DNA from: a virus
Strand: one strand, 5' to 3'
Length of the DNA stretch: 64,000 bases
IMG/VR virus record: IMGVR_UViG_3300001336_000002
Coordinates: 1-64,000 of that record
The notes beneath the pieces were generated by a model. That model had not been told where the DNA came from. It was given only the letters and a program-made list of their open reading frames with translations, and searched no databases. How positions within the stretch are numbered: the stretch's first letter is position 1; every line of letters begins with the position of its first letter. A program made the translations under genes and the position numbers. This document shows, one piece after another, positions 3,001-63,158 of this stretch.

Positions 3001-3017
3001 TGAGGTATAATTAAAAA

Positions 3018-3461
3018 ATGGCAAAAATACCATTACCAGATAGAGGGCAGCCTCTAGACGTAACATATCTATATCAAATTACATCAGCAGTAAACGATTT
3101 GGCAGATTCTATTTCTACTGCCACAGGTAAATATGCAACCATTGACAGCAGGGTGGCAGGCAAACAAAACTTTAAGATTCCAGACATTAGACTTTTTGCG
3201 GGGTATGTAGATGTTGCTAATGCCGTCAACGTTAGTCCTGAAACTACTATTGAAAAGTCAGTAGATTTTGGATCTGCCTTTAAGTATCCCCCGATAGTTA
3301 TTCCTGGTGTTGTAAATAATAATACTCAGTCTGCAGGCAATGATGCTGCCGTTGTTGTAAGTTCTGTGACCACAACATCAGCAAGTTTTAGAGTAAAGTT
3401 TAATCTCAGCGGGGAAGTAAGCGTTGGAGTTAATTACATTGCAGTAGGAGTTCCTGCATAG
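3018..3461 (+). CDS. Putative tail protein with H-type-lectin/gp53-like C-terminus
   Basis: VDFGSAFKYPPIVI...VNYIAVG C-terminal pattern; leaderless after TATAAT. Confidence 0.5.
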   Translation: MAKIPLPDRGQPLDVTYLYQITSAVNDLADSISTATGKYATIDSRVAGKQNFKIPDIRLFAGYVDVANAVNVSPETTIEKSVDFGSAFKYPPIVIPGVVNNNTQSAGNDAAVVVSSVTTTSASFRVKFNLSGEVSVGVNYIAVGVPA

Positions 3462-3486
3462 TTATCATGATATAATTTTCCTTATT

Positions 3487-3678
3487 ATGCTTACATGTAA
3501 AAAATGTACAGGGAAGATGTTTCTTGATAGAGCATTTTCAGAAGAAAATCATTTAGAGACTTTTTGCATACGCTGCGGAACAAGAAAGTTTTACAGAAAC
3601 TTTGACAAGAAAAATGGAGAAGCGGCATGGCTGTGGCAAATGGAAAGGGCGAGAATGTCTCGCTCGATCTCCCAGTGA
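3487..3678 (+). CDS. Small zinc-ribbon protein
   Basis: CKKC...CIRCG. Confidence 0.6.
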   Translation: MLTCKKCTGKMFLDRAFSEENHLETFCIRCGTRKFYRNFDKKNGEAAWLWQMERARMSRSISQ

Positions 3679-4169
3679 TACAAAGACCACGCAGAAAAAC
3701 ATGGTTCCTTGATGGAGATTTGGTAAGAATAACTCATATTAGCCGCGCCCAAGGAATAGTTACCCTTTGGAACTGTACAAAATCTGTACAAATGACAACA
3801 ACTATGGTAGAATTTAAAAAGAAGAGAAGGCGAGCCTTTACTGTAAAGGAGGCAGCCCAACTTCTAAACTACCATAGGAAGAGTATACCGAGATTAGTAA
3901 AGTCTGGTTTTCTCCCTCCACCCGTAGGAGAACTCCATGGTGGAGAAACCGCCTTTCATCACCTCAGTTATTACAGCGAGGATCACATATGGGAGGCAAG
4001 GAATCTTATGGCTCAAACTCATATGGGCCGCGCAAGAAAAGACGGCCTGGTAACAAATAATAAAACCCCAACAGAACAAGAACTTAGATATGCCATGGGT
4101 GATGGCTTAATTTATTATGTAAGAAATGAAGAAGGGAAATTTGTTCCTGTTTTTAGTGAGACAATGTAG
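3627..4169 (+). CDS. HTH DNA-binding protein (MerR/excisionase-like)
   Basis: FTVKEAAQLLNYHRKSIPRLVKSG helix-turn-helix; true start may be later. Confidence 0.6.
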   Translation: MAVANGKGENVSLDLPVIQRPRRKTWFLDGDLVRITHISRAQGIVTLWNCTKSVQMTTTMVEFKKKRRRAFTVKEAAQLLNYHRKSIPRLVKSGFLPPPVGELHGGETAFHHLSYYSEDHIWEARNLMAQTHMGRARKDGLVTNNKTPTEQELRYAMGDGLIYYVRNEEGKFVPVFSETM

Positions 4170-4225
4170 TTGACTTACCTCTAAATAACCAATACAATGG
4201 GTGGAACTAGTAGAAAGGAGTTGGC

Positions 4226-4423
4226 ATGGAGCCAACAAAAATTCAATGGTCTCTAGGATACACAAAGAACCTAGGAAATTTTGAGTCGCTTAGGCTAGAT
4301 TGTCAGGTAAGCGACTATATTCGTGATGAGGAAACCGCACGAACAGCATCAGATAGAATCTACCAACTGGTAGAAGATGAACTTATGCGTAAGTTAAAGG
4401 AAGTGCAAGAGGAACTGTCGTAA
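4226..4423 (+). CDS. Hypothetical phage protein
   Basis: Strong RBS (aaggag); TKNLGNFESLRLD motif. Confidence 0.7.
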   Translation: MEPTKIQWSLGYTKNLGNFESLRLDCQVSDYIRDEETARTASDRIYQLVEDELMRKLKEVQEELS

Positions 4424-11756: not shown

Positions 11757-12093
11757 TGATTTAGACGACACAGCGTTCACGTTGAATGCTCATGCAAGAG
11801 AAAAGGGATTTTGGAGCCCACTAGAAAGAATGGAAAAGCAGGACCATATTATCTTTTACCTGAAACAACTTCAGATGATTAATACTGAGGTTAGTGAGGT
11901 AACAGAAGCAATGAGAAAAGAAAAGGGGGACGACCAAGTGGTTGAAGAATTAGCAGATATTTTGGTTCGGCTCCTAGACCTGTATGGTGGACTAGCGACA
12001 GAAGGATACACAAAAGAATCATTGCAAAAACATTTTAACGATAAGGTTGAAAAGAATCTTTCACGACCAAAGATGCATGGAGTTTTAGCGTGA
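11749..12093 (+). CDS. MazG-like NTP pyrophosphohydrolase
   Basis: EVSEVTEAMRK...EELADILVRLLD. Confidence 0.85.
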   Translation: MLNDLDDTAFTLNAHAREKGFWSPLERMEKQDHIIFYLKQLQMINTEVSEVTEAMRKEKGDDQVVEELADILVRLLDLYGGLATEGYTKESLQKHFNDKVEKNLSRPKMHGVLA

Positions 12094-13100
12094 CCAATGT
12101 AGAAGATGTTCTTGCTAATCTAAATCCTAAGTTAAGAAAAAAGGTTAGCATTGGATCAGAGATTGAAAACGTTCGATTTGCTGAAACACCGTCTTATGGA
12201 TTGAATTCTGCCCTAAATGGTGGACTCCCCTACGGCAGGCAGATTCTTATATGGGGAAATAAAAGTTCTGGTAAGTCATCGTTTTGTCTACAAATTCTTG
12301 CGGGGGAACAAAAGAAGGGAAAAGTATGTGCATGGATAGACGCAGAAATGACATTTTCTCCAGAGTGGGCTACCCGATTAGGCGTAGACACAGAGAATCT
12401 TATTGTGTCAACAGCAAGAACAGTCAACGATATGGTGGATGTTGCCACCGATCTAATGAAAGCGGGGGTAGACGTTATTGTGGTTGACTCTATCTCTGCT
12501 CTTCTTCCTGCTGTTTATTTTGAAAAAGATAGCACAGAACTTAAGCAACTAGAAAACACTAAACAGATGGGGGCGGAAGCAAGAGATATGGCCAATGCCG
12601 TCAAGATGCTTAACTATGCCAACAATCAGGATAAGCCAACCCTATTAATTCTTATTAGTCAATCAAGAAATAACCTCGGCTCCATGTATGTAAATCTTAT
12701 TCCTACTGGGGGCAAGGCTGTTCAGTTTTATTCTTCAACTATCATTAAACTGTTTTCCTCTGAGTCTGATAACCAGGCAATAAAGGGTAAACTGTATGTG
12801 GGAGACAGAATCATTGAAGAAAAAATTGGTAGAAAAGTAAGATGGGATGTTCAGTTTTCTAAAACGTCTCCTGCATTTCAAACTGGAGAATACGACTTTT
12901 ATTTTCGTGGAGATGATGTCGGCATTGATAGCATTGCTGACCTTGTTGATACTGCTGAGTCGATGGGGCTGGTAGAGCGAGCAGGGGCTTGGTATACAGT
13001 TGAAGGTGAAAGGTTCCAGGGTAGAGATAAACTCGTCTTAGGAGTTAAAGAGAACTTAGATATTCAGGAATTACTAATAAAGAAAGTGACTAATGCCTAG
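12090..13100 (+). CDS. recA: RecA/UvsX recombinase
   Basis: GNKSSGKS, WIDAE, IVVDSISAL, TGGKAVQFYSS, GAWY. Confidence 0.93.
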   Translation: MTNVEDVLANLNPKLRKKVSIGSEIENVRFAETPSYGLNSALNGGLPYGRQILIWGNKSSGKSSFCLQILAGEQKKGKVCAWIDAEMTFSPEWATRLGVDTENLIVSTARTVNDMVDVATDLMKAGVDVIVVDSISALLPAVYFEKDSTELKQLENTKQMGAEARDMANAVKMLNYANNQDKPTLLILISQSRNNLGSMYVNLIPTGGKAVQFYSSTIIKLFSSESDNQAIKGKLYVGDRIIEEKIGRKVRWDVQFSKTSPAFQTGEYDFYFRGDDVGIDSIADLVDTAESMGLVERAGAWYTVEGERFQGRDKLVLGVKENLDIQELLIKKVTNA

Positions 13101-39095: not shown

Positions 39096-39291
39096 TTATA
39101 CACAGGTTATCCACAATAGGGTTATTGCATATATATATAAAGCCGACTTTTCCACATAAAATATAATAAATCCTACTAAAACATAGCAAAATAGGACAAA
39201 ATCGGACATTTTAGGACAATAATCCCCCGGAAATATAATAGTTATCCACAAGTTATCCACAGGATGGGTATATATAAAAAAGTTATCCACA
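39096..39291 (+). promoter_or_regulatory. Cluster of six co-oriented DnaA boxes in AT-rich intergenic DNA
   Basis: TTATCCACA at 39107, 39242, 39253, 39283; TTATACACA at 39096; TTTTCCACA at 39148. Confidence 0.8.
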
Positions 39292-39367
39292 AGGGAATAC
39301 CCAAGGGATATGTTAAAAACAAATAGTATGCTCTGTTAAATACTATAGATGTATATAGGTATATAGG

Positions 39368-39877
39368 TTATAGTTTGAGAATATCTACTGGTCCCTGGCA
39401 AGTTGGGGAGAAATAAATTGCTGACTGTACAGCCAATTCTATTCTATCTTCTGTTAATAATGTCTTAGATGTATATAGGGAACCTAAAGCAAAGGGTCCA
39501 CCACTACCTATAGCAGTTGCTTTTACTTGCGCTACGCTCCAGTCAGAAGTATTAAATTCAAACAACATTCCATTTGCCCCAATAAGAAAATCTGCAGCAT
39601 GTTCAGGATCAGCATTGCCATAATCTTCTATAGCAGATTTAAGACTAGATGCTATGTCTGTTCTTATTAACCTATATATATCATTATTAGGTATAGGGAG
39701 ATCGATCATTTCCATTAACTGCCCCGTTCCAAGGGAGGCAGCATAACCAAAGATCCATCCATCCTTTACATGGATTTTGGGGCGGGATAAAGAAATCATA
39801 CTATCTTCATCACTAGCACCTCTATCTGCTCCCATATATACATGCTTACCTGTAGATATACCCACAATAACTGTCAT
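39368..39877 (-). CDS. HslV/proteasome-beta-like Ntn peptidase
   Basis: N-terminal (M)TVIVG, GAD, AIGSG, AVQSAI. Confidence 0.75.
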   Translation of the reverse strand: MTVIVGISTGKHVYMGADRGASDEDSMISLSRPKIHVKDGWIFGYAASLGTGQLMEMIDLPIPNNDIYRLIRTDIASSLKSAIEDYGNADPEHAADFLIGANGMLFEFNTSDWSVAQVKATAIGSGGPFALGSLYTSKTLLTEDRIELAVQSAIYFSPTCQGPVDILKL

Positions 39878-39895
39878 GGAGTAATTATATCCTAA

Positions 39896-40110
39896 CTTCC
39901 AGCGATTTTTTAGGTTCCTTCGTAAAGGTTTTTAATAAATAATTAAATCTTAAAACCTCAAAAACTCCCAGCCCATTTTGGGCTCCTTCGTAATACTTTT
40001 TTCAAAAATTCTCAGCCCATTTTCCGGTCCTTCGTAAAGGAGTTTTAATAGAATAGTTTTAAATCCGGTCAAAACTCCCAGCCCATTTTTGAGAGGGATC
40101 GTAAAGGAGT
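39896..40110. repeat. Four imperfect direct repeats CAGCCCATTTT-Nx-(CCT)TCGTAA(AGG)
   Basis: Copies near 39899, 39969, 40013, 40079 separated by AT-rich DNA. Confidence 0.75.
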
Positions 40111-40382
40111 TTTTATTTAGTTTAAGTTGGACCGGCCCCGCCACCCAAACCCGTTGTGTCGCAATGACTTTGTGGGCTTAGTGGCGAAACCTGTTGTCCT
40201 GCAGCCTAATCAAACAGCATAGCCAAAAAGATTGCAGGGACAATCAGAAGGGACATAAGCCCAATCATCCCAATCATTACCTCTGACTTTCCTGTAGGAC
40301 GAATAGATGAATCTTGACTCATCCTCTGAACACGACGGGAATGATGATATCCTGTAGCCTTGCCAATACCCATAGTGACTCC

Positions 40383-40875
40383 TTAGTTTTTCTGTGAAAC
40401 AGCAATAGCAGACTGATCTAGCAAGTCATCTAGTGATGAGAAGTTGCGAGATGAAAGCCCCAGCATATCGCAAACATCGTTATAGCATGAATCTATAGAG
40501 GCTTCTCCTTCAGTAGAGGCAGACAGAACGTTGCCGTTGGCAACAGATACCGCAAGGGCAAAGGAATCAAAGTGACTGTCAAAAAATGAATACCAAGCCT
40601 CGTTGTCAATCATTGTGTTGTATAGATCAGCAAGAATCTCTACCTTGTCAATAAGTTCCATCGAATACTCCTAGATCTAGTGTCATCTGCCCTGGCACAT
40701 TGTCAAAGTGCCCTGAGTTACGATAATACTCTAATCCCTCCTGAAATGTCAAGATATTGTGAAGGATGCGAGGTCGAGCCTTGGAATGAACGTAGAATGA
40801 TACGATCTTCCATTCCTCATCGCTCAGTTCCGCATCGTTATAGACCTTGATGATTGCGTCTGCTTTCTTCTCCAT
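40383..40875 (-). other. Two small hypothetical ORFs (40648-40875, 40383-40661)
   Basis: Leaderless start after TAGGAT; overlapping pair. Confidence 0.55.
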
Positions 40876-41027
40876 ACCCGAATCCTATCATAGTTGGGGG
40901 ACAAATACAAGTGGGGGAGAGGCTGGTAGCGAATCAACCCCTCCCCCTTCCGATACCTGCACGAACCCTGCGTTAACGAGAGCCGTGTTCTTATCGGCGG
41001 TGTCACCATCCTAAGTGACTTGTGTCC

Positions 41028-41363
41028 TTATTTAGATGGTGACTCCTTTTGTTTGAGCCAACCGCATGACCATCTACCTCGCTCTACGGTGTCTCTATTG
41101 TTGTCTCCTTGTGTACCACCCAAAAGGTGGGCGGGATTGTTACAAGATGGATTGTCGCAAGTATGTCTTACGACTTCTGGTAGATATCCATTTGTCTTGT
41201 AGAACATGTATCTATGGCTACGCTGTATCTTTGGTCTTTCACACCAGAAGAAGCCATATCCATCTTTATCCACTTTCCCTTTCCAAGGCCAACATTCTGT
41301 TTCGCCATTCTGTTCTATCTGTGACCAGAACCGCTTTTCTCTTTTAGTTTCCCAGGTGCCCAT
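41028..41363 (-). CDS. HNH endonuclease
   Basis: CWPWKG..GYG..HR..VRHTCDNPSCNNPAHLLGGTQGDNNRD. Confidence 0.88.
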   Translation of the reverse strand: MGTWETKREKRFWSQIEQNGETECWPWKGKVDKDGYGFFWCERPKIQRSHRYMFYKTNGYLPEVVRHTCDNPSCNNPAHLLGGTQGDNNRDTVERGRWSCGWLKQKESPSK

Positions 41364-41403
41364 GTATTTATTATATCAGAGTCCTTAGGCATTTCCTTAG
41401 GGA

Positions 41404-41556
41404 CTACCGCGCAGCGACGGCGGGAGCCTTGCGGAGACCTGTAAGATTGACAGAATCAATAAACTTGCCATCCTGATCACGGATAACCACACGCTCCTGA
41501 GTGCCATAGCGAGTGTTCCAGGTCTCAAGGTAAGTGTACTTACGAACCTTAGCCAT
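41404..41556 (-). CDS. Small basic protein (50 aa, not in ORF track)
   Basis: aaggag RBS; MAKVRKYTYLETWNTRYG. Confidence 0.6.
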   Translation of the reverse strand: MAKVRKYTYLETWNTRYGTQERVVIRDQDGKFIDSVNLTGLRKAPAVAAR

Positions 41557-41612
41557 ATTGCTCTCCTTTACTAGTAAGGGTTTTATCTATCTGAATATTC
41601 ATTCAGAAATCT

Positions 41613-42065
41613 TTAGTTTTCAGACCAGTCAACCTCTACACGATCTTCTGAGAATTCTGCATCAACATCATTTTCATAGTATGAAACGCTGAGGCTTGGT
41701 TCCAATATGTCTTCCAAGGTATCCATATCAAAGTTCAGGGGAGCCTTGACAGTACCCGTGAATGTCACGGTAACCTGTACGTCATATTCCTTGCTGATAT
41801 CAAGATCAAAAATCTCAACCAGGCGTTGGGAAACTTCTTCGTCCATGTAATCGAAGTTATCCCTGATGTATTCTTCTAACTCATCTACCTTCTCCTGAAG
41901 TTTGGTGTACATGTTGGCATAGTTAGAACGACGGGATTCTGCAATCTCTAGATCGTTCTTTAGTTGAGCAATCTGTCGCTCCAACTCTTCCGCTGAAGCA
42001 ATTACGTTGTAAGGATTAGTAGCAACCTCTGCATCTGTGATATCTACAAAAGTAGGATCAATCAT
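41613..42065 (-). CDS. Acidic coiled-coil hypothetical protein
   Basis: ORF; heptad region. Confidence 0.6.
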   Translation of the reverse strand: MIDPTFVDITDAEVATNPYNVIASAEELERQIAQLKNDLEIAESRRSNYANMYTKLQEKVDELEEYIRDNFDYMDEEVSQRLVEIFDLDISKEYDVQVTVTFTGTVKAPLNFDMDTLEDILEPSLSVSYYENDVDAEFSEDRVEVDWSEN

Positions 42066-42066
42066 T

Positions 42067-42456
42067 TCAGACTCCAATCTTAGGCTTGGCGTACTTGTTG
42101 ATGAATTCCTCGCGGGTGAACGAGACAATGCTATCAGTTAGAACCCCCGCTTTCCAGTCAAAATCATACAGAGTTACCTCGCGGGTAGCAAAGTCATAGA
42201 CGGGAACCTTGTGCTCATTGTCTGCAAGGTAGTTGACCGTGATACCCCATCCAAGATCGCCGTTCCAATCCTCGCCAACCAACTGCGAGATGACAATACG
42301 AGTCCCATAGGCGGGATCATCAAGGCGTCCAACATTTCGAGCATATTCAAGAGCCTTAGCGAACTGGGCAAGCATTCCATATCCTGCCCAATGTCCGTAC
42401 ACGAAGATGGTATTGCCGTCAGTCTGACGCAATCCGAAGTTAGCGCGATCTCCCAT
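42067..42456 (-). CDS. Conserved phage hypothetical protein (MGDRANF..VY.HWAG)
   Basis: ggagg RBS; upstream TTGACC-N18-TAGACT promoter. Confidence 0.7.
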   Translation of the reverse strand: MGDRANFGLRQTDGNTIFVYGHWAGYGMLAQFAKALEYARNVGRLDDPAYGTRIVISQLVGEDWNGDLGWGITVNYLADNEHKVPVYDFATREVTLYDFDWKAGVLTDSIVSFTREEFINKYAKPKIGV

Positions 42457-42566
42457 TTTATTCCTCCAACGCTAGATAATAGTCTGAATACTCTTTGTCA
42501 TGTACCGCAAAGTCTATACCTAGTTCCTTGCACAGGTCAAGACTTTCTTGAAAGTTTTCCTGGCCC

Positions 42567-44656
42567 TTATACAGGTGAACCATTATAGGCCACCCATTTA
42601 TGTTCTGAATAATCAAATAAGGAAAGTTGTTCTGGGTCTTCTTTTAGTCCTTCCTGCCACCGCAGATATCCTGCATAGGATTCGTCTGGCTCTGAGCAGT
42701 CCCACCAGACAGCATCCCACAGGCGCAGTTCATCTAGCATATCCTGAGCCGTGATGATGCGACCATTAGGAAGTTTGTGCTGCAGGGTGAGTGCATCTTC
42801 ATTGCTGATCTCATATTGCCAGTCCTCGGGAATGTCTGCCCAACCTAGGATATATGGATCAGCCTCATCTACAAACTCATCAAAGAATTCCTGCACGGAC
42901 AACTGAATGTCGGCGGGAATGGGTGGATAAAAGTTATTAGTAAGGTGCATGGTGATATCGGTCATGAGGTCTCCTCAATCTCTACTGAATCTTGTAAGAA
43001 GCCGCCTTCGGTAAGCACGGCATCCTCATGATTATACTCGCCACTATAGAATTTTTCCCTAGCCTCATCCATATCAGTAGCCTCTACTTCTAGCGTCCAC
43101 CAATCTTCTGTTGTGTAACTAATCTGAAACTTAGGCATTAGTCGAACAACTCCTTTGGTAGAGTATCGTTGGCGGTATCAAAGATGATGCTATAATCCTT
43201 AGCAATTTCATCTTCGATATCCCTGCAATACTGAAGTGCTAACATTGGGTTATCGGCCTCTACAACAATGGCTGCTCTGGTAGCGACAAGATACTTAGTC
43301 ATTACGATACCTCCTGCGAAACGGTGCAGTATAGTGGTGCGTAATGGTGCATTACGAGACCTCCTGCGGAATGGGAATAACATCAACTAGCGAGTATAGT
43401 GTATTGAGAAGGGTCTGGTCAAGTGCCTCCAGACCTGGCGTATCATCGCAAGGGGCAAACCAGCCGTAGCCAGTTTCGGGGGAAGAAGAATCATACTCAT
43501 AGACATTTCCATCAGGGAAGTAGCCAAAAGTATCAAGTTCTACAAACCACTTCTGCATATCAGTATCGAATCCAATAACATAGTGAAACTGCATGGACAC
43601 TCCTTATCCTGTGTAGGGCTGGGTCCAGTCCCAGGCATAGTTCTGAAGAATATCTTCTACCCGATCAAGAGCCTCAGACTCATCCTCGGCGTCAATAATA
43701 AAACTAACATTCTGAACCTCTACGGTGATATCCATCATTCCTCCTCATCCAGAGACTCTTCTGTGGTCTCATGAATAATCTGAATCTCTCCAGACCTCAT
43801 CATGTCATTGAGAATATCCATCTCGTTAGGCTCTGAATCAAAGTAGACTTCGTAGTCATATGCCGCTTCTTCGCGGGTAGACTCTAGCATGATCGTTCCT
43901 GATACACGATAAGTAGGCATCATTCCTCCACAAAGTTGTAGTAAAGACGGGTGTACCCATTCTCAGTCTCATGGTTGCTATATTGCAACGTACCCTTCAC
44001 GCCGTCAGACCTGCGCTGAACAATGCAAAGATCATAGAAGAATCCTAGAACCTCATATTCCTCTAGCATCTGATCCTTGGTAAGCATATTACTGGCTAGC
44101 ATGTCATTCCTCCGTCCAATCCAATGCGTGATCGCTAAAAAATGCTACTCCGCAATTATATCCATGTCTCCACATAGGAGCAAGGGGTGTCGAAATAAAT
44201 TCTGGGCAGTTGCTCCACTCCACCTGATCTGGGAATACTTCCTGCAACTCATCTGGAATATCTCCCAGGTAGCCAATCATGAAGGCCAAAGCAAAGGTCT
44301 CGTGCTCATCGCTGGGAATTCTAGGATTGGTGTTCATCTTCAGCCTCCGTTAGATATAGGCTCTGGTCTTCCACTTCCCAATACAAATTATCGGGGGCGG
44401 TACTGTTGAGATAGTCTATTGCATCATAGTAAGTGCCGTCAAGAGAATCAAGAATGTCAAACATGATATCTTCATCATCTCCTGATGATCTAAACCATTC
44501 GATATCTTTGACAAACTGTTCATACATAAGGTCGAAACCTTTATCATGAGCAAACTCAATAACGGCTACGGAAAAGTCAAATGCGGACCAATGCGATCCG
44601 TCAATGTAGCAACCAGTTTCCACATCAGTTCCAATCTTCGGGGCGGAATCCGCCAT
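42567..44656 (-). other. Run of small acidic hypothetical ORFs (42567-42965, 43138-43386, 43352-43600, 43735-43923, 43920-44102, 44104-44337, 44321-44656)
   Basis: Coupled ORFs with ggag RBS; typical early host-takeover genes. Confidence 0.6.
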
Positions 44657-44804
44657 TGGTTAGCCATTCGTCTAATGCTACAAAGTTCTCAGCGAGTTCT
44701 CCAATGAACTCATCAACTTCGGCGGCAGACATAAGGTTGATCCCCACATCCTCCCATGAATAAATCAGTTCTCTGATATTTTTGAGTGCTTCATTAGGGT
44801 CCAT
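44625..44804 (-). CDS. Small actinophage-type protein (MDPNEAL...LDEWLTNGGFRPEDW; 59 aa, not in ORF track)
   Basis: Leaderless ATG 6 nt after TAGGAT. Confidence 0.7.
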   Translation of the reverse strand: MDPNEALKNIRELIYSWEDVGINLMSAAEVDEFIGELAENFVALDEWLTNGGFRPEDWN

Positions 44805-44961
44805 AACTGCATCCTATATCATGGGTCTGACATTGACAAGAAAAAATATCCACGGGTTTTTCAAGGCGTTCGTAAGGGTCTTCGTAAAAGAGATTATTTT
44901 GTTTTATATGAAAATGCGACCGGCCCCGAAAGTCGTTGCAGCACAAGCACTTTCATCAGTA

Positions 44962-45036
44962 GGCGCACCTGATGGGATTTGAACCCACGACCTCTACCGT
45001 GACAGGGTAGCGAGCACTCCGCTGCTCCACAAGTGC
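44962..45036 (-). tRNA. tRNA-Asp (GTC)
   Basis: GCACTTG/CAGGTGC; CTACC-CTGTCAC-GGTAG; GTGGG-TTCAAAT-CCCAT. Confidence 0.92.
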
Positions 45037-45040
45037 GTGC

Positions 45041-45070
45041 AGGCAGTTTATCCATACATGCCCAGGTATG
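45041..45070 (-). ncRNA. Small H-type pseudoknot motif, copy 1
   Basis: CATAC-CTGGGCAT-GTATG-GATAAAC-TGCCT. Confidence 0.6.
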
Positions 45071-45122
45071 TGAGGTCAGGTCCGAAGTACGATCACCCAA
45101 TCCCCCAGCGCTAGGGGATGAT

Positions 45123-45150
45123 GGGCAGTTTTACATCATGCCCAGGATGT
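45123..45150 (-). ncRNA. Small H-type pseudoknot motif, copy 2
   Basis: ACATC-CTGGGCAT-GATGT-AAAAC-TGCCC. Confidence 0.6.
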
Positions 45151-45176
45151 TAGGGTACTATGACATGTCATCCATG

Positions 45177-46157
45177 TCAGGCAAAGGCGACAGCCTTGAC
45201 AGCCTTTAGCAGACGATTCTTCTCTGCATTGGTAGCAGCATCGAAACCGCTAGCAGCAGCGAGGACACCTTCTGCATTACCCCCGCGAGGGTTGCGGAAC
45301 CAGTCCAGGCGCTCCGTCAGAGTGTTGTACGCACCCCACGCAGTACCCTTGATGTTGCCAACGGTGTCACCCTGGTAGATGTCAAACAGGGTATCGACCT
45401 TGTTTGTCCACTTGGTGACACTACCCTTGACATCCTTGTCAGGCTCAGGGTAGACAGCCTTGATGATATCGAAGAAGGTATCAGTCGTGATCTCCTTTTC
45501 GATCAAGGTCTGCGCCTCCTTCTCAAACTCATCCAGGTAAGCATTGGCAAGGCCAAGAGCCTCACGCGCAGCCTGCACCTTGCCAGTAACCGTGGAGGTG
45601 TGACGAATCTTGTAGGACTGCTTCACACCATGCAGCGCATAGTTCAGAGTGTTCTGGCACACAACGCGCACAGGGGTAACGGATGCCTGCACAGCAAGCG
45701 AACCATCATGCGAGGTGTGAACCAGCAGATAGGTGTTCACCTTATCGGTAGCACCGCTGGGGTCAAGGACTACCTCGCGGTCAAGGGCAAGGGAGCCAAA
45801 GACAACCGTGCCATTCTTGATGCTGCCAGCGGTCTCCCAACGGCCACCGTCAAGCATATTGTCAGCAAACGAGAACAGATCCTCGTTCTGCAGAACCTTG
45901 TAACGCTCACCCACAACGCCAAGGACATCGCGGTCACCGTCAAACGGATTCTTGCGAGTGACAGCAAAATAGTTCTTGTGTGACCGACCAGGCAGATCAA
46001 CGTCATCAAGACGAACATTCCAGCCAGCCAGATGAGCGACCTGAAGCATTTCCGATGTGCTAACCTCGTGGTCAAGGATGGTGCCAAGACCATGCCAAGC
46101 GGGTTCGCGCAGGGAAGCGAAGGAAGCCATATCTCCGTACTGCTCTAGCATGTGCAT
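45177..46157 (-). CDS. DUF932-family phage/plasmid protein
   Basis: PAWHGLG, YKVLQN, ETAGS, SHDGS, TPVRVVCQNTL, RHT, GTAWGAYN. Confidence 0.9.
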   Translation of the reverse strand: MHMLEQYGDMASFASLREPAWHGLGTILDHEVSTSEMLQVAHLAGWNVRLDDVDLPGRSHKNYFAVTRKNPFDGDRDVLGVVGERYKVLQNEDLFSFADNMLDGGRWETAGSIKNGTVVFGSLALDREVVLDPSGATDKVNTYLLVHTSHDGSLAVQASVTPVRVVCQNTLNYALHGVKQSYKIRHTSTVTGKVQAAREALGLANAYLDEFEKEAQTLIEKEITTDTFFDIIKAVYPEPDKDVKGSVTKWTNKVDTLFDIYQGDTVGNIKGTAWGAYNTLTERLDWFRNPRGGNAEGVLAAASGFDAATNAEKNRLLKAVKAVAFA

Positions 46158-46329
46158 ATCATTTCCAATCTGTAGTAACTGATGATGTCATCATCCTATC
46201 AAGATGGTCTGACATTGGCAAGAAGAAAACGCAGATTTTCAAAATATTTTTTGCAGGGGGTTTGTAACGGGTTCGTAACGATGATCGTAAAAGACTTGAC
46301 AAAATTAGAATTTCGGGCCGGTCGCAAAA

Positions 46330-46950
46330 AGGTGTCCCCCAGGGGAGCGGCGGTGGGTGGGGGAGCGCTCAACCCTGAGGGACGTTTAGGGGAGCAGTTT
46401 GTCATCATGCTCAGGATGCCATATATGGTTATCAAACCTAGTGATTCAGATATTTATTCTATAGAGGGTCAGGGGCTACCTGATTTCAACTATAGACGAC
46501 TCAACCTGAATGCTATTGTTTGACAGTTTGGGAAGAATAGACGGACTCCTTTGCGGTTTACCCGCCGCTGATCAGACTTTGGGTAGCGCCCAAGGCGTGT
46601 TCTATTCTTCCTAGCCACCTTTAGGGAATCGAACCCTATATTACCCAACCAGGGAAGGCAGAGTGCATTACTTTCTAGAATGTTCATGCACCAAGTTTAG
46701 GAAGGAGCATTATCTGCATTGCTTTTGCTCCTAAATTCCCAGGCGACTCCTGATATAGTTGTATAACGTATTAGCAGACCTGGGTGGGGAAGTGAGTCGA
46801 TGTGGGGGTAGTTATCACAACTACCTGCCTCTTTCCATCTAGTCTAAAGAAGCGGATCTATTTTATGGGTGCCTGGGCTAATCCGACCCCTACATCCCTC
46901 CGCGACTAGATGAGTCCTATTCGGCCCCACGGGTCACATATCCCCAAGCC
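46330..46950 (-). ncRNA. Putative large structured ncRNA or ncRNA cluster
   Basis: No credible ORF; several 6-11 bp stems, tRNA-like module, pseudoknot copy 3 (46392-46418), GC hairpin + U-tract at 3' end. Confidence 0.6.
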
Positions 46951-46981
46951 ACTATTTATTTATGTGATTATTGTAACATAT

Positions 46982-48297
46982 TTACTGAGAGGTTGTCCAA
47001 CGATCTCCACTAGGAGTTGTAAGACGGATTCGATATGTACCCTGCGGATTGGGCACGATCTCCTGGATGGTGCCTGTCACACCTGACTTTGCAGTAGTGA
47101 AGGTCTCTCCGATAGCCAACATATTACTTACCCACAATCTGAATAGGAATGGACTTGGTTTGGTTGGTCGCTCCATTAAAGTGACCCTTTTCGTTGCGAA
47201 CAACGGCCTTTACAGCGTCGCCCCACTTCTCAGTACGAACAATGATCTTTGACATTACCCACTCTTTCTGTCGTTGTTGTTGATATTAGTTTACAGTTCT
47301 GGCCAGGGATTGTCAAGGGTTTCTCTAAAATCTTCTGCAGTTGCGTCTATGACACCCTCTTCTATCCACATCCCTACCCCCACCATACCTTGAATAGCGG
47401 AGGCACCTATAGAATAGGATATATCATCCAATGTACCAATGTCAACCATTTCTTTTAAGTCTTGGACTGCTACTGCCACGGCAAGTTTGATATGAGAAAC
47501 AATATCTTCCCCATTGACATAGCAAATATTGTCAATCATTTTGTATTCTACATCTGTTTTATCAAACGTATTCATTGACTATAATCCTTAGTTCTGATCT
47601 TCCAGAGGCTTTCAGCACCTTGCCGTTGCCCTCCTCATCGACCAGGGTAAGGATATGCAAGTCATCACCCTCATCTGCATAGTCTGTGCCTACAACATGA
47701 TAGATGTCGTCTTTGATTAGAATCATGTCCCCTGGCTCAATTGAATAGACTTGCATTAATTCAGTAGTCATTGTCTTCTCCATTATATTAGAGTTTATAA
47801 CCAGCCAAAGAGCACAACACCCAAGGCCATGATGAGCGGTAGAATGATAATGGCAGTAAATAAAATCCCAATAATAGTCTCAATAGAATTGGGACGAGGT
47901 GGCTCATCCATTTAGTGCTCCTTGGGCATCATCGACTACCTTGGCATGAACAGACATCTCATTATGGATAATCATCAGGGTAGATGCAAGGATTTCATCA
48001 TCTGTAATGTTGTAAGCATTCTCTATATAATACAGAGCCATCGCCAGATGGCTGTATGATGCTTTTAGGTTTAGTTGGACAGAGACATCTCTTTCACTCA
48101 TTTAGATACTCCATCCACGATTGCAGGGCGGTAGTGAAATCAAGTTGACTAGGATTATTCTTCTCCCACCCAAAAGTAAATACATCTACCTCGCCACCTT
48201 CTCCAAACACGTTGGCAGTATGGCTACCCTTTGTCCATCGAACGACGACGGTAGGCAGATAAGCAACCATTTCATTTTCTCTAGAAAGAATCATCAT
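46982..48297 (-). other. Small hypothetical ORFs (46982-47203, 47291-47575, 47562-47783, 47904-48101, 48094-48297)
   Basis: Minus-strand ORFs downstream of promoter at 48305. Confidence 0.55.
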
Positions 48298-48445
48298 GTG
48301 TTACACACTAGCATATGGGACTGACATTGACAACTTTTTTACGAATTTTTTCACGACTTCGTAAGGGCTGTTCGTAAGAGCGTTATGTCTGATTGTTTGA
48401 TGGCCCGGCCCGAAAAACCGTTGCAGGACAACGGCTTTCGAGGTT

Positions 48446-48670
48446 CTATGCAATAGCCCCCAAAGTCATTGCAAATGAACGCCTTTCAGCACCTGTCATG
48501 CCACCATAGACATGCGGCTCAAAGTCCTCATTTTCGATAGCGAACATGAGGCAGTCGTCAATCACGGGACACGATTCACAAATCTCTTTAGCCTGCATGA
48601 CGCGAGATGTCACTCCCGTCAGGAACAATGCGCTGTCTGCATCCTTGCACGCTGCCCTATCCTGCCACAT
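48446..48670 (-). CDS. whiB: WhiB-family regulator (second copy, HVYGG turn)
   Basis: WQDRAAC..LF..AKEICESCPVIDDC..YGGMT..ERR. Confidence 0.85.
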   Translation of the reverse strand: MWQDRAACKDADSALFLTGVTSRVMQAKEICESCPVIDDCLMFAIENEDFEPHVYGGMTGAERRSFAMTLGAIA

Positions 48671-49200
48671 TTGCAATCTCCTTTTTCCACTCGCGCTTCT
48701 CGCGCTTCTTGATGATCTTTCGTTCCATCCTAGCATCGGGGTATGACATGCAGCACCCCCAGTAGCAACGCATTCCGTGCTTGCCGATATTGCGGCGGGT
48801 ACGAATCATTCAGCCTCCGTCCATCGAACACCGTCAACGATAATATCTTCATCTAGATACATGACGCGAGAATAGTCGAACGCGTTATCTGGCATCATGT
48901 GGTAAATGTCGATCCATGCTTTTTCTAGTTCGATGCTTAGATCCATTCGACTAGATCTCCATCCATGATCTCGTTTACGTCAAGGCCATTGGCCTCTGCA
49001 ATGGCTTCCCACAGTTCTTCTTCCGTGAACCGTCCGTCCTCTGGCAGGTAGTCGATGTATGACATGTCAGTGCTCCTGTTCATCTACTTGATCGGTTATG
49101 TCGTTATAGAGGGATGTGATGATGTATCCCTGATTCATTAGTTCGCGCAGGCATTCCAATACCTGATCCCAGTCTGCGCGTGGCATCTCTACGGTTACCA

Positions 49201-49401
49201 TCACACACCTCCAAAAAATAGGTTGGTCATATTGTAGTTGTCGATTCTGATCCCCTTGTGGAACGTGATATCGACGCTCGCACCATTGAGCATATCTTCA
49301 TATTCATCGGGGTCGATCTCATCGACATTGCACAGATATACCTTGTCGCTGAGAGGGATCACGGTGCCCGTTCCCTCGTGGTAGATAAATAGATTCTTCA
49401 T
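49201..49401 (-). CDS. Hypothetical protein
   Basis: Leaderless after promoter at 49408. Confidence 0.6.
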   Translation of the reverse strand: MKNLFIYHEGTGTVIPLSDKVYLCNVDEIDPDEYEDMLNGASVDITFHKGIRIDNYNMTNLFFGGV

Positions 49402-49606
49402 GGTTTCACCTTACACTAGGGGTCTGACACTCAGGCCCAGGGGTCATCATCGGGGGTCGGGAATCGACGGGAGGACAAGGCTTGAGCCATGACAGAATAT
49501 TCCTCAAGTCCAGAACGCATGATCTCATCACAGGATGAGCAGATTAGGTGGAACCGCTCGCACGGTCCCTGGCATAGGAGGCAGTTTGTCTTCATGATAT
49601 TTCCTT

Positions 49607-49825
49607 TCAGCAGAATGGGCAGGGAGTCTTGATGGAATCGACAATCTGGACACTACCAGCCTCGTTCACCCAACGAGGGCCAACGCGACCAAACTCATCC
49701 TTCAGATAGATCGAATAGCGGAACATGGCGAAGGAAGGCTTATGGATACGCACAACCTCACCCTTCGTTCCATCGGACATGCGGACCAGATCGCCCACCT
49801 TGATATCTTTCACAGAGACCTTCAT
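49607..49825 (-). CDS. Small SH3/KOW-like protein
   Basis: DIKVGDLVRM..GEVVRI; aaaggag RBS. Confidence 0.6.
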   Translation of the reverse strand: MKVSVKDIKVGDLVRMSDGTKGEVVRIHKPSFAMFRYSIYLKDEFGRVGPRWVNEAGSVQIVDSIKTPCPFC

Positions 49826-50402
49826 GATCTCTCCTTTCTGCTATGTCTCTATTCTTGCATAGGGGTCTGACATTCACAAATCGAGAATGTGTATAAAACG
49901 GACATTTTAGATCACAGAATGATAACAGAATAGAGAGACATTTTTCGAATGCGTGTTCGATTCTAAAAAGTTGTTGGTAGACAAGGGGTTTTCAGCGTGT
50001 TCTTAAAGTGATCGTAAAAGTTGTTGTGGCACAACAGGTTTGCGGCCCGGCCCGCCCCGCTCAAAACCGTTGCAGCACAACGGCTTTCATCGATTCATTA
50101 TCACAAGGGCAGACCACAAAACAATCATGACGACAAAATATCCAGCAATAGCAACGGGTTTCGGTCGGTATGGTGAAACTAATAGCATGGCAAATATCAC
50201 CATTTGAAAAAATATAGCAATGGCAATCACCTAGTCTCCCAATCGAAATCGACGTTGAAGTCCTTTAGCATACCACTAGCGTCGCCTAGATATCCAGAAA
50301 GATATGCTAGTGCTTGATCGGAATTGGGGAATGTCTTTTGGAATGATCTTTCACCATAGCCAACGTCGATGGTGAAAGTGACTGTGGGAGTAGGGTGTTT
50401 CA

Positions 50403-50960
50403 TCATGCCGCCGACCCCCTAACGATGATCCAGATGAGCGCCTGAGCGGTGCGAGGGGTGATGCCAAACTGTGAAGCAACGGAGGTGATAGCCTCAGACA
50501 ACAGACGATATTGTGTCTTGTTAGGCGAGTCGGTGTCCATGCCAGCAGCACGCATCATCCAAACGTCGATGACGACAGCATCGGTGTCACCAGCGATAGC
50601 GCGAGCGAAGGCGTTGGTCTTGAGACCCTTCAGGGCTGAAAACCCTTGCGAGACAGCGGCTTCCGCCATGCGAAGATTATTAGACAGGCCGCTAACTGGC
50701 TTGCCATTGGCGAACGCATATGCCTTAGCGACATTGGATGCCCAACGCTCACGAGGGGAGAAGGCAGACACGATGGACGCGCCATGCTCTAGGCTCACAC
50801 CTAGAATCTCAGCAACGTCTTCCGCAACCTCTTGCGCTTCCAGATACCAAGTCGAAGCGGCTTCCATCTGGGCGAGGGTAGCGGTCATGATAAGGCTCTC
50901 AAAACGAGCGGCGGCTGATGCGAACACGGAGGTGCCCTCTGGGGCGGTAACTGTAATCAT
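50403..50960 (-). CDS. Conserved phage protein (SAFSP..W..N / K..AF / VVIDVW family; possibly HhH-glycosylase-related)
   Basis: WY, SAFSPRERWASN, GLKTNAF, VIDVW, QALIW; leaderless. Confidence 0.6.
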   Translation of the reverse strand: MITVTAPEGTSVFASAAARFESLIMTATLAQMEAASTWYLEAQEVAEDVAEILGVSLEHGASIVSAFSPRERWASNVAKAYAFANGKPVSGLSNNLRMAEAAVSQGFSALKGLKTNAFARAIAGDTDAVVIDVWMMRAAGMDTDSPNKTQYRLLSEAITSVASQFGITPRTAQALIWIIVRGSAA

Positions 50961-51283
50961 GGAATGATCCTATCAAAGGGGTCTGACATTCTGAGGGTAT
51001 ATGGAGGATTATTCGGTAACGAAACGGTCACGATGCTTGGACTTACGGTTATACCTGGCCTTATTCCTATGGGGCTGGGCAGCATTAGAACGACGACGGT
51101 CCATGATGGCTCGCTGATGACTATTAGACCTGCGTGACTTATTCATGGCATGATCCTATCATATTTAGATAATCATGTCAAATGAAAAAAGTTGTTGTGT
51201 CTCAAGGGTTTCTAGCGATTCAGGGAAATATCGTAACCTCGTAAACCGTTGCAGCACAAGGGAAATCGCGCCCGGCCCTCTTT

Positions 51284-52448
51284 TCAGGATTTGTCAAGTA
51301 TCTCCTGTATGTCGTTACGAACCTGCAACAACTGTTCGATCATGCGTTCGACACGCTTGTATTCATCAGGGTTGTCTGTCGCATAGTACGCACGATCCAG
51401 GGGGTCTAGAGTGAGATAGATATCATTGCTAGCCTTCTTTAGGTTAGACAAGAATGCGTCATGACGCGAGATGGTCTTCATTAGTCCTCCTGATATTCAT
51501 CGAAGTCTAGGGGCTCATAGTCAGCACACCAACCGCAGATAGTATCGGTGCTATCTGCCCAATCCCAGAACACCTCATCACATGAGGCGCAAACAACTGC
51601 TTCCAGGTTGATCTCATATGTATCGTTCATGGATTCACCTTATCATGATAGTCTGACATTCATCAATGAAAAATAAAAATGCTTTTTATTACATGATCGT
51701 AACGAGTGTTCGTAAGGGCTTGACAAGTGCAAAGATTTGGGCCGGGCCTGAAAACCGTTGCAGCGCAACGACTTTCGGCTACATGGTTTCGATGTGTCCC
51801 ACCAAGCCCATGAGCATGGCGAAGGCGAAAACACCTAGTGTCACAAGGACTTTCTCCATCACAATGCCTCCACAAAGTCGTTGCCGTGCAACACCTTTTT
51901 GATGACGGGAAGGTGGTCATCACACACGAGGGTAGACACATGCTTTCCATTGTACTCAGACACCTGAGTCACCTTGTGGGTAGCACGAGCACGGCTCACG
52001 CGGTTATCGCAGAATACATGCTGGCAGACGGGCGAACCGTCGCGGGTATAGTTAGGCCAACCCATGATGATCACTCACTCTCATTACTGTAGAACACTTG
52101 CTGTTGGACACGGATATAGTTGTTGATTGCTTGCTGGATCTTGTTCATGGTATCACCTTATCATGGGGGTCTGACATTGTGGCCTAGGGCTCATCCCCTT
52201 GCGGGGCTTATTTGCCTAGGAAGATTTAGTTATTAGGCGAACACCCTAGCCCTATGGCAGTCAGCGCAGATGATGGTGTCATTCACGATGGACAGGTCAG
52301 CGGTGTTATTCGTTCCGCAGGTCCAGCAAGCCCACGGCTCGCGGCGGATCTGTCGGTCATAGTATTCTGTGATGCCCCAGAACACAACGGTGAACACAGC
52401 GGGGATTCCGATGAAGATAGCGATTGCCATCAGGATACCTTCGAACAT
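51284..52448 (-). other. Small hypothetical ORFs (51284-51481, 51859-52074, 52233-52448 and shorter ones)
   Basis: Each lies downstream of a TGTCAG promoter. Confidence 0.5.
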
Positions 52449-52552
52449 TTGTCTAGCCTTTCTTCTTGTGTTGCTTCGATACTATCACAGGGGTCTGACA
52501 TTGGACGAGAGGTTAGACCAACTCCTCGTCCACGAACCGAATAATCTCAGTG

Positions 52553-52568
52553 TCGAACGGCTGTTCGA
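52553..52568. promoter_or_regulatory. Perfect actinobacterial LexA box TCGAAC-N4-GTTCGA
   Basis: TCGAAC GGCT GTTCGA; one-mismatch copies at 49945-49960, 51336-51351, 52925-52940. Confidence 0.55.
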
Positions 52569-53093
52569 TTGCAAATGCTTCGGCGGCTTCACGAGTATCG
52601 AACCGTGCAACGGTACGCCCCATGACACGAGCCACGCTATAGCCTGTACGGGTAATCCACATATCTGTCACCTCCTTTGCTTTCATACCTGAAGACTATC
52701 AGATTGGTCTGACATTGACAAATTTGAAAAGGTGCAAATCGGACATTTTAGATAACAGAAATGTAACGAAATTTTTCGCTCAGGTGTTCGATTATTTTGA
52801 TCAAAAATTCTACGCTGAGGTTCGATCAAAACCGTTGCGCTGCAACGACTTTTGTCGTATAGCAAGGCTGAAAAGTTGTTGTGCTGCAACGATTTTTGCT
52901 GTGGCTGAGTGCGCTCTATCTTATTCGAATTTTTGTTCGATTTTGCGTACCGTACACACTTACAAAATATTAAACTTTAGTTCAAATCCAATTCTGATAA
53001 AATTTTAAGAATTAAAAATATGGGCACACAAAAAATTTTTAAACTTTCTATAAATCGAATATATCAACTCATCATGCGTAGTATCATATATAC

Positions 53094-53288
53094 ATGAAAC
53101 CTGTAAAACCGTGGGACCTATTAAATAAAGACAATTGGACAGTAGAAGAACTACGAAAAAAAAGACTAGAAATATGTCGGGAATGTCCAGAATATAACAA
53201 TTTCACAAAACAGTGTTCACAATGCAAGTGTTTTATGCCTGCTAAGACATGGCTAGAAAATGCTTTTTGTCCATTACGCAAATGGTAA
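53094..53288 (+). CDS. Small Cys-rich protein
   Basis: RLEICRECP..CSQCKCFM..K..CPLRKW. Confidence 0.7.
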   Translation: MKPVKPWDLLNKDNWTVEELRKKRLEICRECPEYNNFTKQCSQCKCFMPAKTWLENAFCPLRKW

Positions 53289-62139: not shown

Positions 62140-63158
62140 TGAGTTTGTGGTTGGGTATATTGTCCGGTCAAATTTCTTCTACTGCTTTGCAAGAAAATAT
62201 TGCGGTATCGCACCAACTCAGTCCCTTCATCACCGTCTATCCTTGGAGTTCAGGCTTTGGCACCAAGTATGCCGATCCTGCTATATTGCCTTCCTCCGCT
62301 GGTTTCTCCACAGCATTTTCACCATCAGGCAATGATCTTGCGGTAGCGCACGACCTCGGTCCCTACATCACCGTCTATCCTTGGAGTTCAGGCTTTGGCA
62401 CCAAGTATGCCGATCCTGCTATATTGCCTGGTTATTACGGTTTCTCCACAGCATTTTCACCATCAGGCAATGATCTTGCGGTAGCGCACGACTTCTCTCC
62501 CCGCATCTCCGTCTATCCTTGGAGTTCAGGCTTTGGCACCAAGTATGCCGATCCTGCTATATTGCCTTCCTACACTGGTCTCTCCACAGCATTTTCACCA
62601 TCAGGCAATGATCTTGCGGTAGGGCACCGATTCAGTCCCTACATCTCCGTCTATGCTTGGAGTTCAGGCTTTGGCACCAAGTATGCCAATCCTGCTATAT
62701 TGCCTTCCTACACTGGTCTCTCCACAGCATTTTCACCATCAGGCAATGATCTTGCGGTAGCGCACGGATTCAGTCCCTACATCACCGTCTATCCTTGGAA
62801 TGCAGGCTTTGGCACCAAGTATGCCGATCCTGCTATATTGCCTTTCTACACTGGTCTCTCCACAGCATTTTCACCATCAGGCAATGATCTTGCGGTAGCG
62901 CACGAATACGCTCCCAACATCACCGTCTATCCTTGGAATGCAGGCTTTGGCACCAAGTATGCCAATCCTGCTATATTGCCGACGGGTTACGGTTTCTCCA
63001 CAGCATTTTCACCATCAGGCAATGATCTTGCGGTAGCGCACCGACTCTCTCCCCACATCACCGTCTATCCTTGGAGTTCAGGCTTTGGCACCAAGTATGC
63101 CAATCCTGCTATATTGCCTGCTTCTTACGGTTTCTCCACAGCATTTTCACCTAACTAG
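62139..63158 (+). CDS. Seven-bladed WD40-like beta-propeller, probable receptor-binding protein
   Basis: Seven 46-aa repeats (AFSPSGNDLAVAH..SP.I.VYPW) after short N-terminal adaptor. Confidence 0.8.
   Translation: MSLWLGILSGQISSTALQENIAVSHQLSPFITVYPWSSGFGTKYADPAILPSSAGFSTAFSPSGNDLAVAHDLGPYITVYPWSSGFGTKYADPAILPGYYGFSTAFSPSGNDLAVAHDFSPRISVYPWSSGFGTKYADPAILPSYTGLSTAFSPSGNDLAVGHRFSPYISVYAWSSGFGTKYANPAILPSYTGLSTAFSPSGNDLAVAHGFSPYITVYPWNAGFGTKYADPAILPFYTGLSTAFSPSGNDLAVAHEYAPNITVYPWNAGFGTKYANPAILPTGYGFSTAFSPSGNDLAVAHRLSPHITVYPWSSGFGTKYANPAILPASYGFSTAFSPN
62201..63155 (+). repeat. Tandem 138-bp repeat, 7 copies (last truncated)
   Basis: Units start at 62201, 62339 and every 138 nt thereafter; framework nearly identical at nucleotide level. 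Confidence 0.95.

Follow-up and report, generated by a model that had tools for sequence, protein, structure and literature searches.

A one-strand array of PafBC-type promoters with LexA- and DnaA-consensus boxes in one island of a phage genome

Large lytic phages can keep early regions in terminal repeats, as in the host-takeover module of SPO1 and the pre-early region of T5, and phage genes under the control of host LexA are familiar from CTXphi (rstA), coliphage 186 (tum) and GIL01, which are temperate or plasmid-like and use LexA for induction. The "sigma adaptation" exerted by PafBC is known only as a cellular DNA-damage response and has been studied in mycobacteria. The PafBC motif, tGTCgg(N10)tA(N3)T, joins a −26 element to a normal −10 without a −35, and residues R46 and R50 of PafB read the GTC triplet of the −26 element (PMC8635444); single-stranded DNA switches PafBC on (PMC11804915). 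The stretch considered here, the window, covers the first 64 kb of an IMG/VR virus record of 101,743 bp (IMGVR_UViG_3300001336_000002), and at positions 39096-52940 it holds an island of small genes with a conserved one-strand array of real PafBC-geometry promoters, accompanied by leaderless starts, cassette terminators and boxes of LexA and DnaA consensus. The initial annotation knew of no such combination in a phage, and a literature search indeed found no account of PafBC-type promoters in one.

Motifs were tallied inside and outside the island over the full 101,743-bp record, on both strands. The pattern TGTCAG-N10-TAnnnT occurs nine times in the island, always on the minus strand, and once outside it; in the window, ten matches were counted against 0.71 expected from shuffles. 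Eleven promoters can be read in the island, ten of which follow (A)ATGTCAG(A/T)CC..-TGnTAnnnT, that is, an extended −10 of sigma-A type preceded by a GTC-containing element at about −28 to −23. The gap between TGTCAG and the −10 is exactly 10 nt at all ten sites, one of which carries AAGAAT as its −10, and at four of the ten TTGTCA or TTGCCA also occupies exactly the −35 position, the other six being without a −35. The eleventh is an ordinary TTGACA-N17-TAGGAT, so that the "about 11" PafBC-type promoters of the initial annotation resolve into ten of that type and one plain one; its observation that the regulatory motifs are concentrated in the island likewise held over the full record, where they are essentially island-confined. 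At eight of the eleven promoters the ATG of an open reading frame (ORF) follows the −10 by 6 nt (once 7 nt), a placement with a chance of about 1 in 64 per site, and such exact spacing argues for genuine promoters whose transcripts begin at the start codon as leaderless mRNAs. The first plus-strand gene past the island is leaderless too (53082-53096), its ATG at 53094 lying 6 nt after TATCAT, without TGTCAG. Generic sigma-70 and terminator scans of the island gave no clear excess over shuffles (in the flank control, the generic promoter scan returned 74 promoter-like sites against 54.9 ± 7.3), because the real promoters lack a −35 and the hairpins are short-tailed. A common 9-mer from outside the island, TTGCAAAAA, was considered as a second promoter and rejected as coding sequence; the commonest 9-mers of the record stem from seven near-identical 138-bp repeats within one plus-strand gene at 62250-63150.

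All eleven promoters are on the minus strand and are numbered from the upper end of the island. P1 (52693-52714) combines a −35-like TTGTCA with TGTCAGACC-N-TAGTCT and is leaderless, the ATG of the ORF at 52513-52686 standing 6 nt after the −10. P2 (52479-52500; TGTCAGACCCC-N-TAGTAT) has no −35 and drives a leadered ORF with a Shine-Dalgarno sequence (52233-52448), and P3 (52155-52176; TGTCAGACCCCC-N-TAAGGT), also without a −35, is followed after 6 nt by the ATG (52148) of a 25-residue ORF. P4 (51637-51658) reads TGTCAGACTA-N-TAAGGT and is leaderless from the ATG at 51630 (ORF 51481-51630). The ordinary promoter, P5 (51153-51181), reads TTGACA-N17-(TG)TAGGAT without TGTCAG and leads leaderless into a basic ORF of 45 residues with its ATG at 51146. 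The TGTCAGACCCC element recurs in P6 (50967-50988; TAGGAT, no −35), leaderless at the ATG (50960) of a DUF7178 gene, in P7 (49851-49872), which has the deviant AAGAAT and a leadered ORF (49607-49825), and in P8 (49408-49429; TAAGGT, no −35), leaderless at ATG 49401. P9 (48305-48326) joins TTGTCA to TGTCAGTCCC-N-TAGTGT, with the ATG (48297) 7 nt after the −10; P10 (46193-46214), the leadered promoter of a DUF932 gene, joins TTGCCA to TGTCAGACC-N-TAGGAT; and P11 (44811-44832), leaderless at ATG 44804, joins TTGTCA to TGTCAGACCC-N-TAGGAT and heads about 20 tightly packed genes reaching down to about 40.2 kb.

This promoter grammar is common to a whole clade of phages: more than a hundred related contigs have the same layout, and many of them possess the DnaA sites as well. 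Eighty IMG/VR loci retrieved with the DUF932 protein (1.36 Mb, many on contigs of 100-117 kb) contain 912 copies of TGTC[AG]G-N10-TAnnnT on the gene strand and just 10 on the opposite one, with 16 matches for a reversed-pattern control, and at least five PafBC-type sites were found in 63 of the 80 loci; the enrichment described for the island is thus repeated across its relatives. When whole records of five relatives were inspected, the sites were confined to one 9-13 kb one-strand block in four, the fifth having no more than three. Compiled into a matrix, 739 unique sites give wAA-TGTC(A/G)G-(T/A)(G/C)(G/C)-N4-TGn-TAnAAT with no −35 consensus, although about 20% of the sites have at least four of six matches to TTGACA at the right distance. 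Start codons over the same sites peak at +6/+7 (84 sites, against 1-5 at other offsets), with an A resembling a transcription start. Several relatives carry the −26 element TGTCGGTGG, which is identical to the mycobacterial consensus word. An IMG/VR scan for AATGTCGGTGG-N7-TAnnnT gave, among the loci listed, at least five co-oriented sites with at most one on the opposite strand in 31 of 80, and the exact pattern AATGTCAGACCCCNNNTGATA had no IMG/VR match beyond the window's own record. At the nucleotide level, megablast of the island and of one flank against 50,697 phage records returned no match. The two closest DUF932 relatives, L003 and L006, have a TTGACA-N17 promoter of the plain kind in the corresponding position ahead of DUF932, and it follows that promoters of the −35 and −26 types replace each other in evolution.

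Sequences of LexA operator type are confined in the same way, the pattern TCGAAC-N4-RTTCGA having three sites in the island and none outside, with four strand hits in the window against a shuffle expectation of 0.02. One of them, TCGAACAGCCGTTCGA (52553-52568), is a perfect TCGAAC-N4-GTTCGA palindrome inside the first ORF, 52 bp upstream of P2; the others, TCGAACAAAAATTCGA (52925-52940, minus strand) at the island's divergent edge and TCGAACACGCATTCGA (49945-49960, minus strand) 72 bp upstream of P7, each depart from that consensus at a single position. From each box to the next PafBC-type promoter downstream the distance is 52-215 bp. The phage has a recA gene of its own (12090-13100, plus strand; PF00154, E 6e-41), whose product might stimulate the cleavage of LexA and thereby act back on these boxes.

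At the lower end of the island, six co-oriented DnaA boxes occupy 196 bp of the plus strand (39096-39291), two pairs being 11 bp apart. Four are perfect TTATCCACA boxes (39107, 39242, 39253 and 39283) and two are near-consensus (TTATACACA at 39096 and TTTTCCACA at 39148); the four perfect boxes are the only ones in the record, against a window shuffle expectation of 0.84. The six DnaA boxes of the initial annotation were recovered in full; its four LexA-type boxes came down to three. The cluster sits among TATATA tracts in a 280-bp AT-rich gene-free gap where the plus- and minus-strand gene blocks converge. Judged by sequence, this association of consensus DnaA boxes with adjoining AT-rich DNA at 39.1-39.3 kb makes the segment a candidate replication origin or DnaA-binding array. 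A turn in GC skew at about 38-39 kb is uninformative on this point because it coincides with the change of coding strand.

In the 80 related loci, perfect DnaA boxes number 323, with 4 for the reversed control, and 85 same-orientation pairs with a spacing of 11-12 or 21 bp occur in 56 loci, the median distance to the next promoter downstream being 88 bp. Perfect LexA boxes are scarcer there (6 in 5 loci) and in L030 stand directly beside DnaA-box pairs. In that same locus (1673-4330), a DnaA-box pair is found at every cassette boundary, about 850-950 bp apart. A pair also stands at every cassette boundary at 518-4430 of L016, a locus that lacks PafBC-type promoters altogether and has only the TTGACAA type. 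At the 3' end of the island of L010 (15388-15560), four AAACCTAACAA repeats are flanked by three DnaA boxes, an iteron-like arrangement that fits a replication origin.

It can be inferred that the host is an actinobacterium, because the phage carries a WhiB gene, because leaderless mRNAs are typical of actinobacteria, and because the homologues of the WhiB, DUF932, DUF7178, HNH and HslV-like proteins of the island belong to phages of Mycobacterium, Gordonia, Streptomyces and other actinobacteria. Genes for DnaB, DnaG, a DnaE-type polymerase, RecA, the large terminase subunit, tail proteins and several tRNAs are present in the phage, and its polymerase shares 53% identity with those of the Stanwilliamsviridae, phages of Streptomyces. 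A host call from the phage GMP reductase was uninformative, the best matches being to Pelagibacteraceae, Acidocella and others at 35-46% identity. Nanopelagicales genomes, reached via the GMP reductase search, were used as host stand-ins and chosen by freshwater habitat, a GC content of about 48-50% and box sequence. A WYL-domain match was present in 40 of 41 sampled genomes and, among the matches listed, mostly as pairs about 1 kb apart. The pair in one of them matches PafB (7p5x, E 1e-24) and PafC (E 9e-18; PDB 7p5x and 6sj9), and its PafB retains R46 and R50 in the stretch FERMFERDK. In each of five small Nanopelagicales genomes, a perfect TCGAAC-N4-GTTCGA box lies upstream of recA, whose promoter reads TGTCGGTGG-N-TAACTT, TGTCAGTAG-N-TAAGTT or TGTCGTAGG-N-TAACGT; the distance from box to PafBC-type promoter is 50-90 bp in three genomes and about 155-175 bp in two. 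The phage repeats this box-then-promoter layout twice, at 52 bp (P2) and 72 bp (P7). High-GC actinobacteria use TTGTCCACA as the DnaA box; the oriC of Nanopelagicales differs from this. Its oriC regions contain 3-7 perfect TTATCCACA boxes, some of them paired at a spacing of 10-12 bp. In one Nanopelagicales genome (G016:C18:8732-8823), a second cluster of six perfect TTATCCACA boxes lies away from dnaA, perhaps as part of a mobile element or as a locus resembling datA. The proposal of the initial annotation that the island is wired to host regulators is supported to this extent: its LexA and DnaA words match the recA operator and the oriC boxes of the Nanopelagicales genomes, its promoters have PafBC geometry, the −26 element of relatives is identical to that of Nanopelagicales recA promoters, and Pfam scans of the phage found no WYL, LexA-DNA-binding or DnaA-C domain.

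With a probability of roughly 0.55, the island is an early, host-takeover block that is transcribed by host RNA polymerase with the help of PafBC. Early expression is suggested by analogy, and by homology of the block to the terminal repeat that the Streptomyces BE phages carry, described below. On this model, host RNA polymerase with sigma-A would transcribe the island early, the four promoters with TTGNCA at −35 firing unaided and starting the programme, and the six without a −35 would need host PafBC activated by single-stranded DNA, which might arise at the injected genome's ends, during phage replication or through UV damage. LexA and DnaA would add regulatory inputs: host LexA may bind the three operator-like boxes, which are arranged as at host recA, and the six DnaA boxes may form the phage origin, at which host DnaA would open the DNA for phage DnaB, DnaG and DnaE, or alternatively a DnaA-binding array.

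A number of observations weigh against this assignment. The Nanopelagicales genomes are stand-ins for the host, and in this candidate host lineage a PafBC-type regulon is seen at recA only: the PafBC-type motif with TG showed no excess in five candidate host genomes, and TGTCRGTR has only 2-5 matches per genome, about the control level. The phage element is TGTCAGACC(CC), a GACCCC subclass, where host-lineage recA has TGTCGGTGG, TGTCAGTAG or TGTCGTAGG; its positions 6-9 and the flanking AA are conserved in the phages beyond the known recognition needs of PafBC. The extended −10 TG is found in the phage promoters and not in the host-lineage matches, and a −35-like hexamer, which the mycobacterial class lacks, stands at four promoters. 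Of the LexA-type boxes, two contain a mismatch and none of the three overlaps a mapped promoter, and the early timing is argued by analogy only.

Several of these points would be accommodated if a phage-encoded activator, made from promoter P1 or carried in the virion, recognised TGTCAG(A/T)(C/G)(C/G) and redirected host RNA polymerase in the manner of MotA/AsiA, the likeness to PafBC then reflecting convergence or competition. The conservation of the element beyond its GTC core, the co-occurrence of GTGG and GACCCC subclasses in single genomes and the paucity of such sites in host-lineage genomes all speak for it; the −35-like hexamers of P1, P9, P10 and P11 could bootstrap expression, and most island proteins match no family. 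It requires, however, an additional, unseen factor, and the exact N10 spacing and the identity of TGTCGGTGG in relatives with the recA promoter word of the host lineage are points against it, as are the Pfam scans, which gave no WYL domain and only a below-cut-off match to sigma region 4 outside the island. Such an activator is therefore a minority possibility, for which perhaps one chance in a handful may be reserved. Comparably tentative is a more ambitious version of the PafBC reading, in which a freshwater actinophage clade would have built its first-expressed genome end from the damage and replication words of its host: PafBC promoters fired by single-stranded DNA, perhaps at resected injected ends, would be combined with LexA operators and DnaA pairs in each cassette, and the amplified array would strip a streamlined host of PafBC, LexA and DnaA.

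Less probable again is that the element needs no activator and is a spacer feature boosting extended −10 promoters for the host sigma-A holoenzyme, so that the island would hold strong constitutive early promoters. Most sites have the extended −10 TGn, a feature with which promoters can do without a −35, and the plain TTGACA-N17 promoters of L003 and L006 at the DUF932 position indicate that the two kinds are interchangeable; yet the 739 sites keep TGTC-R-G invariant and its distance fixed, which goes far beyond a spacer preference, and the element coincides with the site of a known factor, PafBC. That the sites serve chiefly as decoys, with multiplying phage DNA soaking up PafBC, LexA and DnaA and thereby blocking host replication initiation and distorting the damage response, is the least likely proposal and plausible only numerically (10 PafBC-type sites per phage genome against the 2-5 matches to the narrower TGTCRGTR in candidate hosts, at about control level; 4-6 DnaA boxes in the phage and up to 8 perfect ones per 20-kb locus in relatives, against 13-23 per candidate host chromosome; DnaA-box pairs of relatives at many cassette boundaries rather than one origin), since the promoter sites lie exactly where promoters are needed, with leaderless starts, and transcription explains them without a decoy role.

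The island as a whole consists of about 40 small minus-strand ORFs running from about 52.95 kb down to 39.37 kb, and comprises at least six cassettes. Its upper 8 kb (52.7-44.8 kb) is split into cassettes, at whose boundaries a hairpin of the form AAAG-CCGTTG-loop-CAACGG-TTTT, the word GGCCGGKC, a TTACGA pair, an A-tract and a promoter follow one another. The lower 5.4 kb is one tight gene run from P11, closed by three hairpin units in tandem and an HslV-like gene with a leaderless start. Among the recognisable genes, all on the minus strand, are those for a WhiB-family transcription factor (48446-48736; PF02467, E 1e-16), a DUF932 protein (45177-46157; PF06067, E 1e-52), a DUF7178 protein (50403-50960) with homologues in Mycobacterium, Gordonia and Rhodococcus phages, an HNH endonuclease (41028-41363; PF13392) and, as the final gene of the block, an HslV/proteasome-like peptidase (39368-39877), leaderless from TATAAT at 39884-39889. 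A tRNA-Asp(GTC) gene (44962-45036, minus strand) lies directly downstream of DUF932, and the 250-bp bin with this tRNA and the DUF932 end drew BLAST matches from 46 related loci. Ten small island proteins matched no Pfam family. The GC content is 45-49% at 40-52 kb, compared with 36-42% across most of the record; a foreign GC-rich insertion was nevertheless rejected as an explanation, since the relatives all carry the block and its GC content exceeds that of the flanks in 37 of 37 loci.

The boundary hairpins have energies of −11 to −15 kcal/mol, and all those located are on the minus strand. AAAG-TCGTTGC-AGC-GCAACGG-TTTT at 52834-52846 (−10.6 kcal/mol) is terminator-like, as are the hairpins at 51757-51769 (−12.9 kcal/mol, followed by GGCCCGGCC, at the cassette boundary before P4), 50069-50081 (−13.4 kcal/mol, followed by GGGCCGGGCC, before P7) and 48420-48432 (−15.2 kcal/mol, again followed by GGGCCGGGCC, after the WhiB gene at the boundary before P9). 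The GTTG-N5-CAA palindromes of the initial annotation are real, with 20 strand hits in the island, but not exclusive to it, with 9 outside; the stricter GTTG-N5-CAAC forms 7 hairpins inside and 1 outside. The GTNAC-like direct repeats did not stand, GTNAC being hardly enriched (6.5 against 4.3 per kb outside), and the real unit is (C/T/G)TTACGA, which forms pairs 8-13 bp apart about 40-55 bp upstream of five promoters. One (C/T)TTACGA pair, 12 bp apart, lies at 44870-44888 (minus strand), about 40 bp upstream of the P11 element; further TTACGA pairs are at 46262-46291, 48359-48378, 51231-51245 and 51697-51716. Three words are found only in the island over the whole record, namely GGCCGGKC (7 against 0), AAATGTCCG (3 against 0; 39203, 49899 and 52740) and CAACAACTTTT (4 against 0). 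The tandem hairpin units that precede the HslV-like gene, three copies of AAAACTCC...GGGAGTTTT (39960-40110, minus strand), each contain TTTACGA. Between two cassettes on the minus strand lies an ORF-free stretch of about 690 nt (46300-46990), with a T-arm-like GGTTCGATTCC and a fold z of −2.4, which by BLAST is common to three related loci only. The structured RNAs claimed for the island are therefore represented by the hairpin terminators and by this stretch, to which no Rfam family could be assigned; at gathering and E-value thresholds alike, the tRNA was the sole Rfam match.

If the PafBC assignment is correct, early genes of phages of very abundant freshwater bacteria would be driven through PafBC, infection would be linked both with DNA damage and with the sensing of single-stranded DNA, for example after sunlight, and the 739 natural promoter variants would constitute a map of PafBC tolerance. 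The system would then be a host-factor counterpart to T4 MotA/AsiA. The DnaA-box pairs that recur at early promoters are a second, unexplained regulatory theme.

Among described phages, the block appears to correspond to the long terminal repeat of the Streptomyces BE cluster, whose phages carry two copies per record of a DUF932 homologue with 57% identity. In Jay2Jay, an 11.4-kb direct terminal repeat mapped at both ends contains this homologue and about 23 small minus-strand genes with hairpin-plus-promoter spacers, so that here, as in the island, DUF932 stands within a one-strand block of small genes. The Jay2Jay repeat shows no PafBC-type motif match and no perfect DnaA box, and its promoters, by eye an ordinary TTG...-N-TAGACT, are unlike those of the island. 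The boundary grammar of that repeat (L083, 1-11,400) runs from a hairpin through a CCGGACA(T/A)TT word to TTG..-N-TAGACT, and the Jay2Jay word CGGACATTT is the reverse complement of the island-only AAATGTCCG. The "terminal repeat" of the present record is a 72-bp overlap (1-72 and the record end) within Pro/Gly-rich repetitive coding sequence; the contig is accordingly circular by assembly only, and the overlap marks no physical end. Several large related contigs terminate inside or beside the island, which fits an assembly break at a repeat, and the island may be such a terminal repeat whose two copies were merged during assembly.

With the terminal-repeat early regions of large lytic phages in general, the island shares a one-strand run of small, functionally uncharacterised genes about 11-14 kb long, organised in promoter/terminator cassettes. 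It resembles the mycobacterial PafBC-dependent (RecA-NDp) promoters in having TGTC-R-G 10 nt upstream of TAnnnT and no family-wide −35 consensus, and the exact TGTCGGTG(G) word of that class also occurs in relatives of this phage; unlike the mycobacterial promoters, those of the phages, whose class is predicted from sequence, form one-strand arrays of 10-26 and add the extended −10 TG, the flanking AA, the GACCCC subclass and in some cases a −35. As in the T4 middle promoters, where a MotA box stands with a −10 and AsiA/MotA appropriate sigma, an activator box replaces the −35 and defines a gene class, but the island box matches the site of a host factor, and no phage activator was seen in the Pfam scans. 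The presence of host SOS operators in phage regulatory DNA is shared with CTXphi, 186 and GIL01, from which the island differs in belonging to a large, apparently lytic phage and in boxes that adjoin PafBC-type promoters. Finally, co-oriented TTATCCACA boxes 11 bp apart in AT-rich DNA recall oriC, datA and plasmid or phage P1 origins, whereas in the relatives many cassette boundaries carry a DnaA pair, about 90 bp upstream of the promoter, which is not how an origin is laid out.

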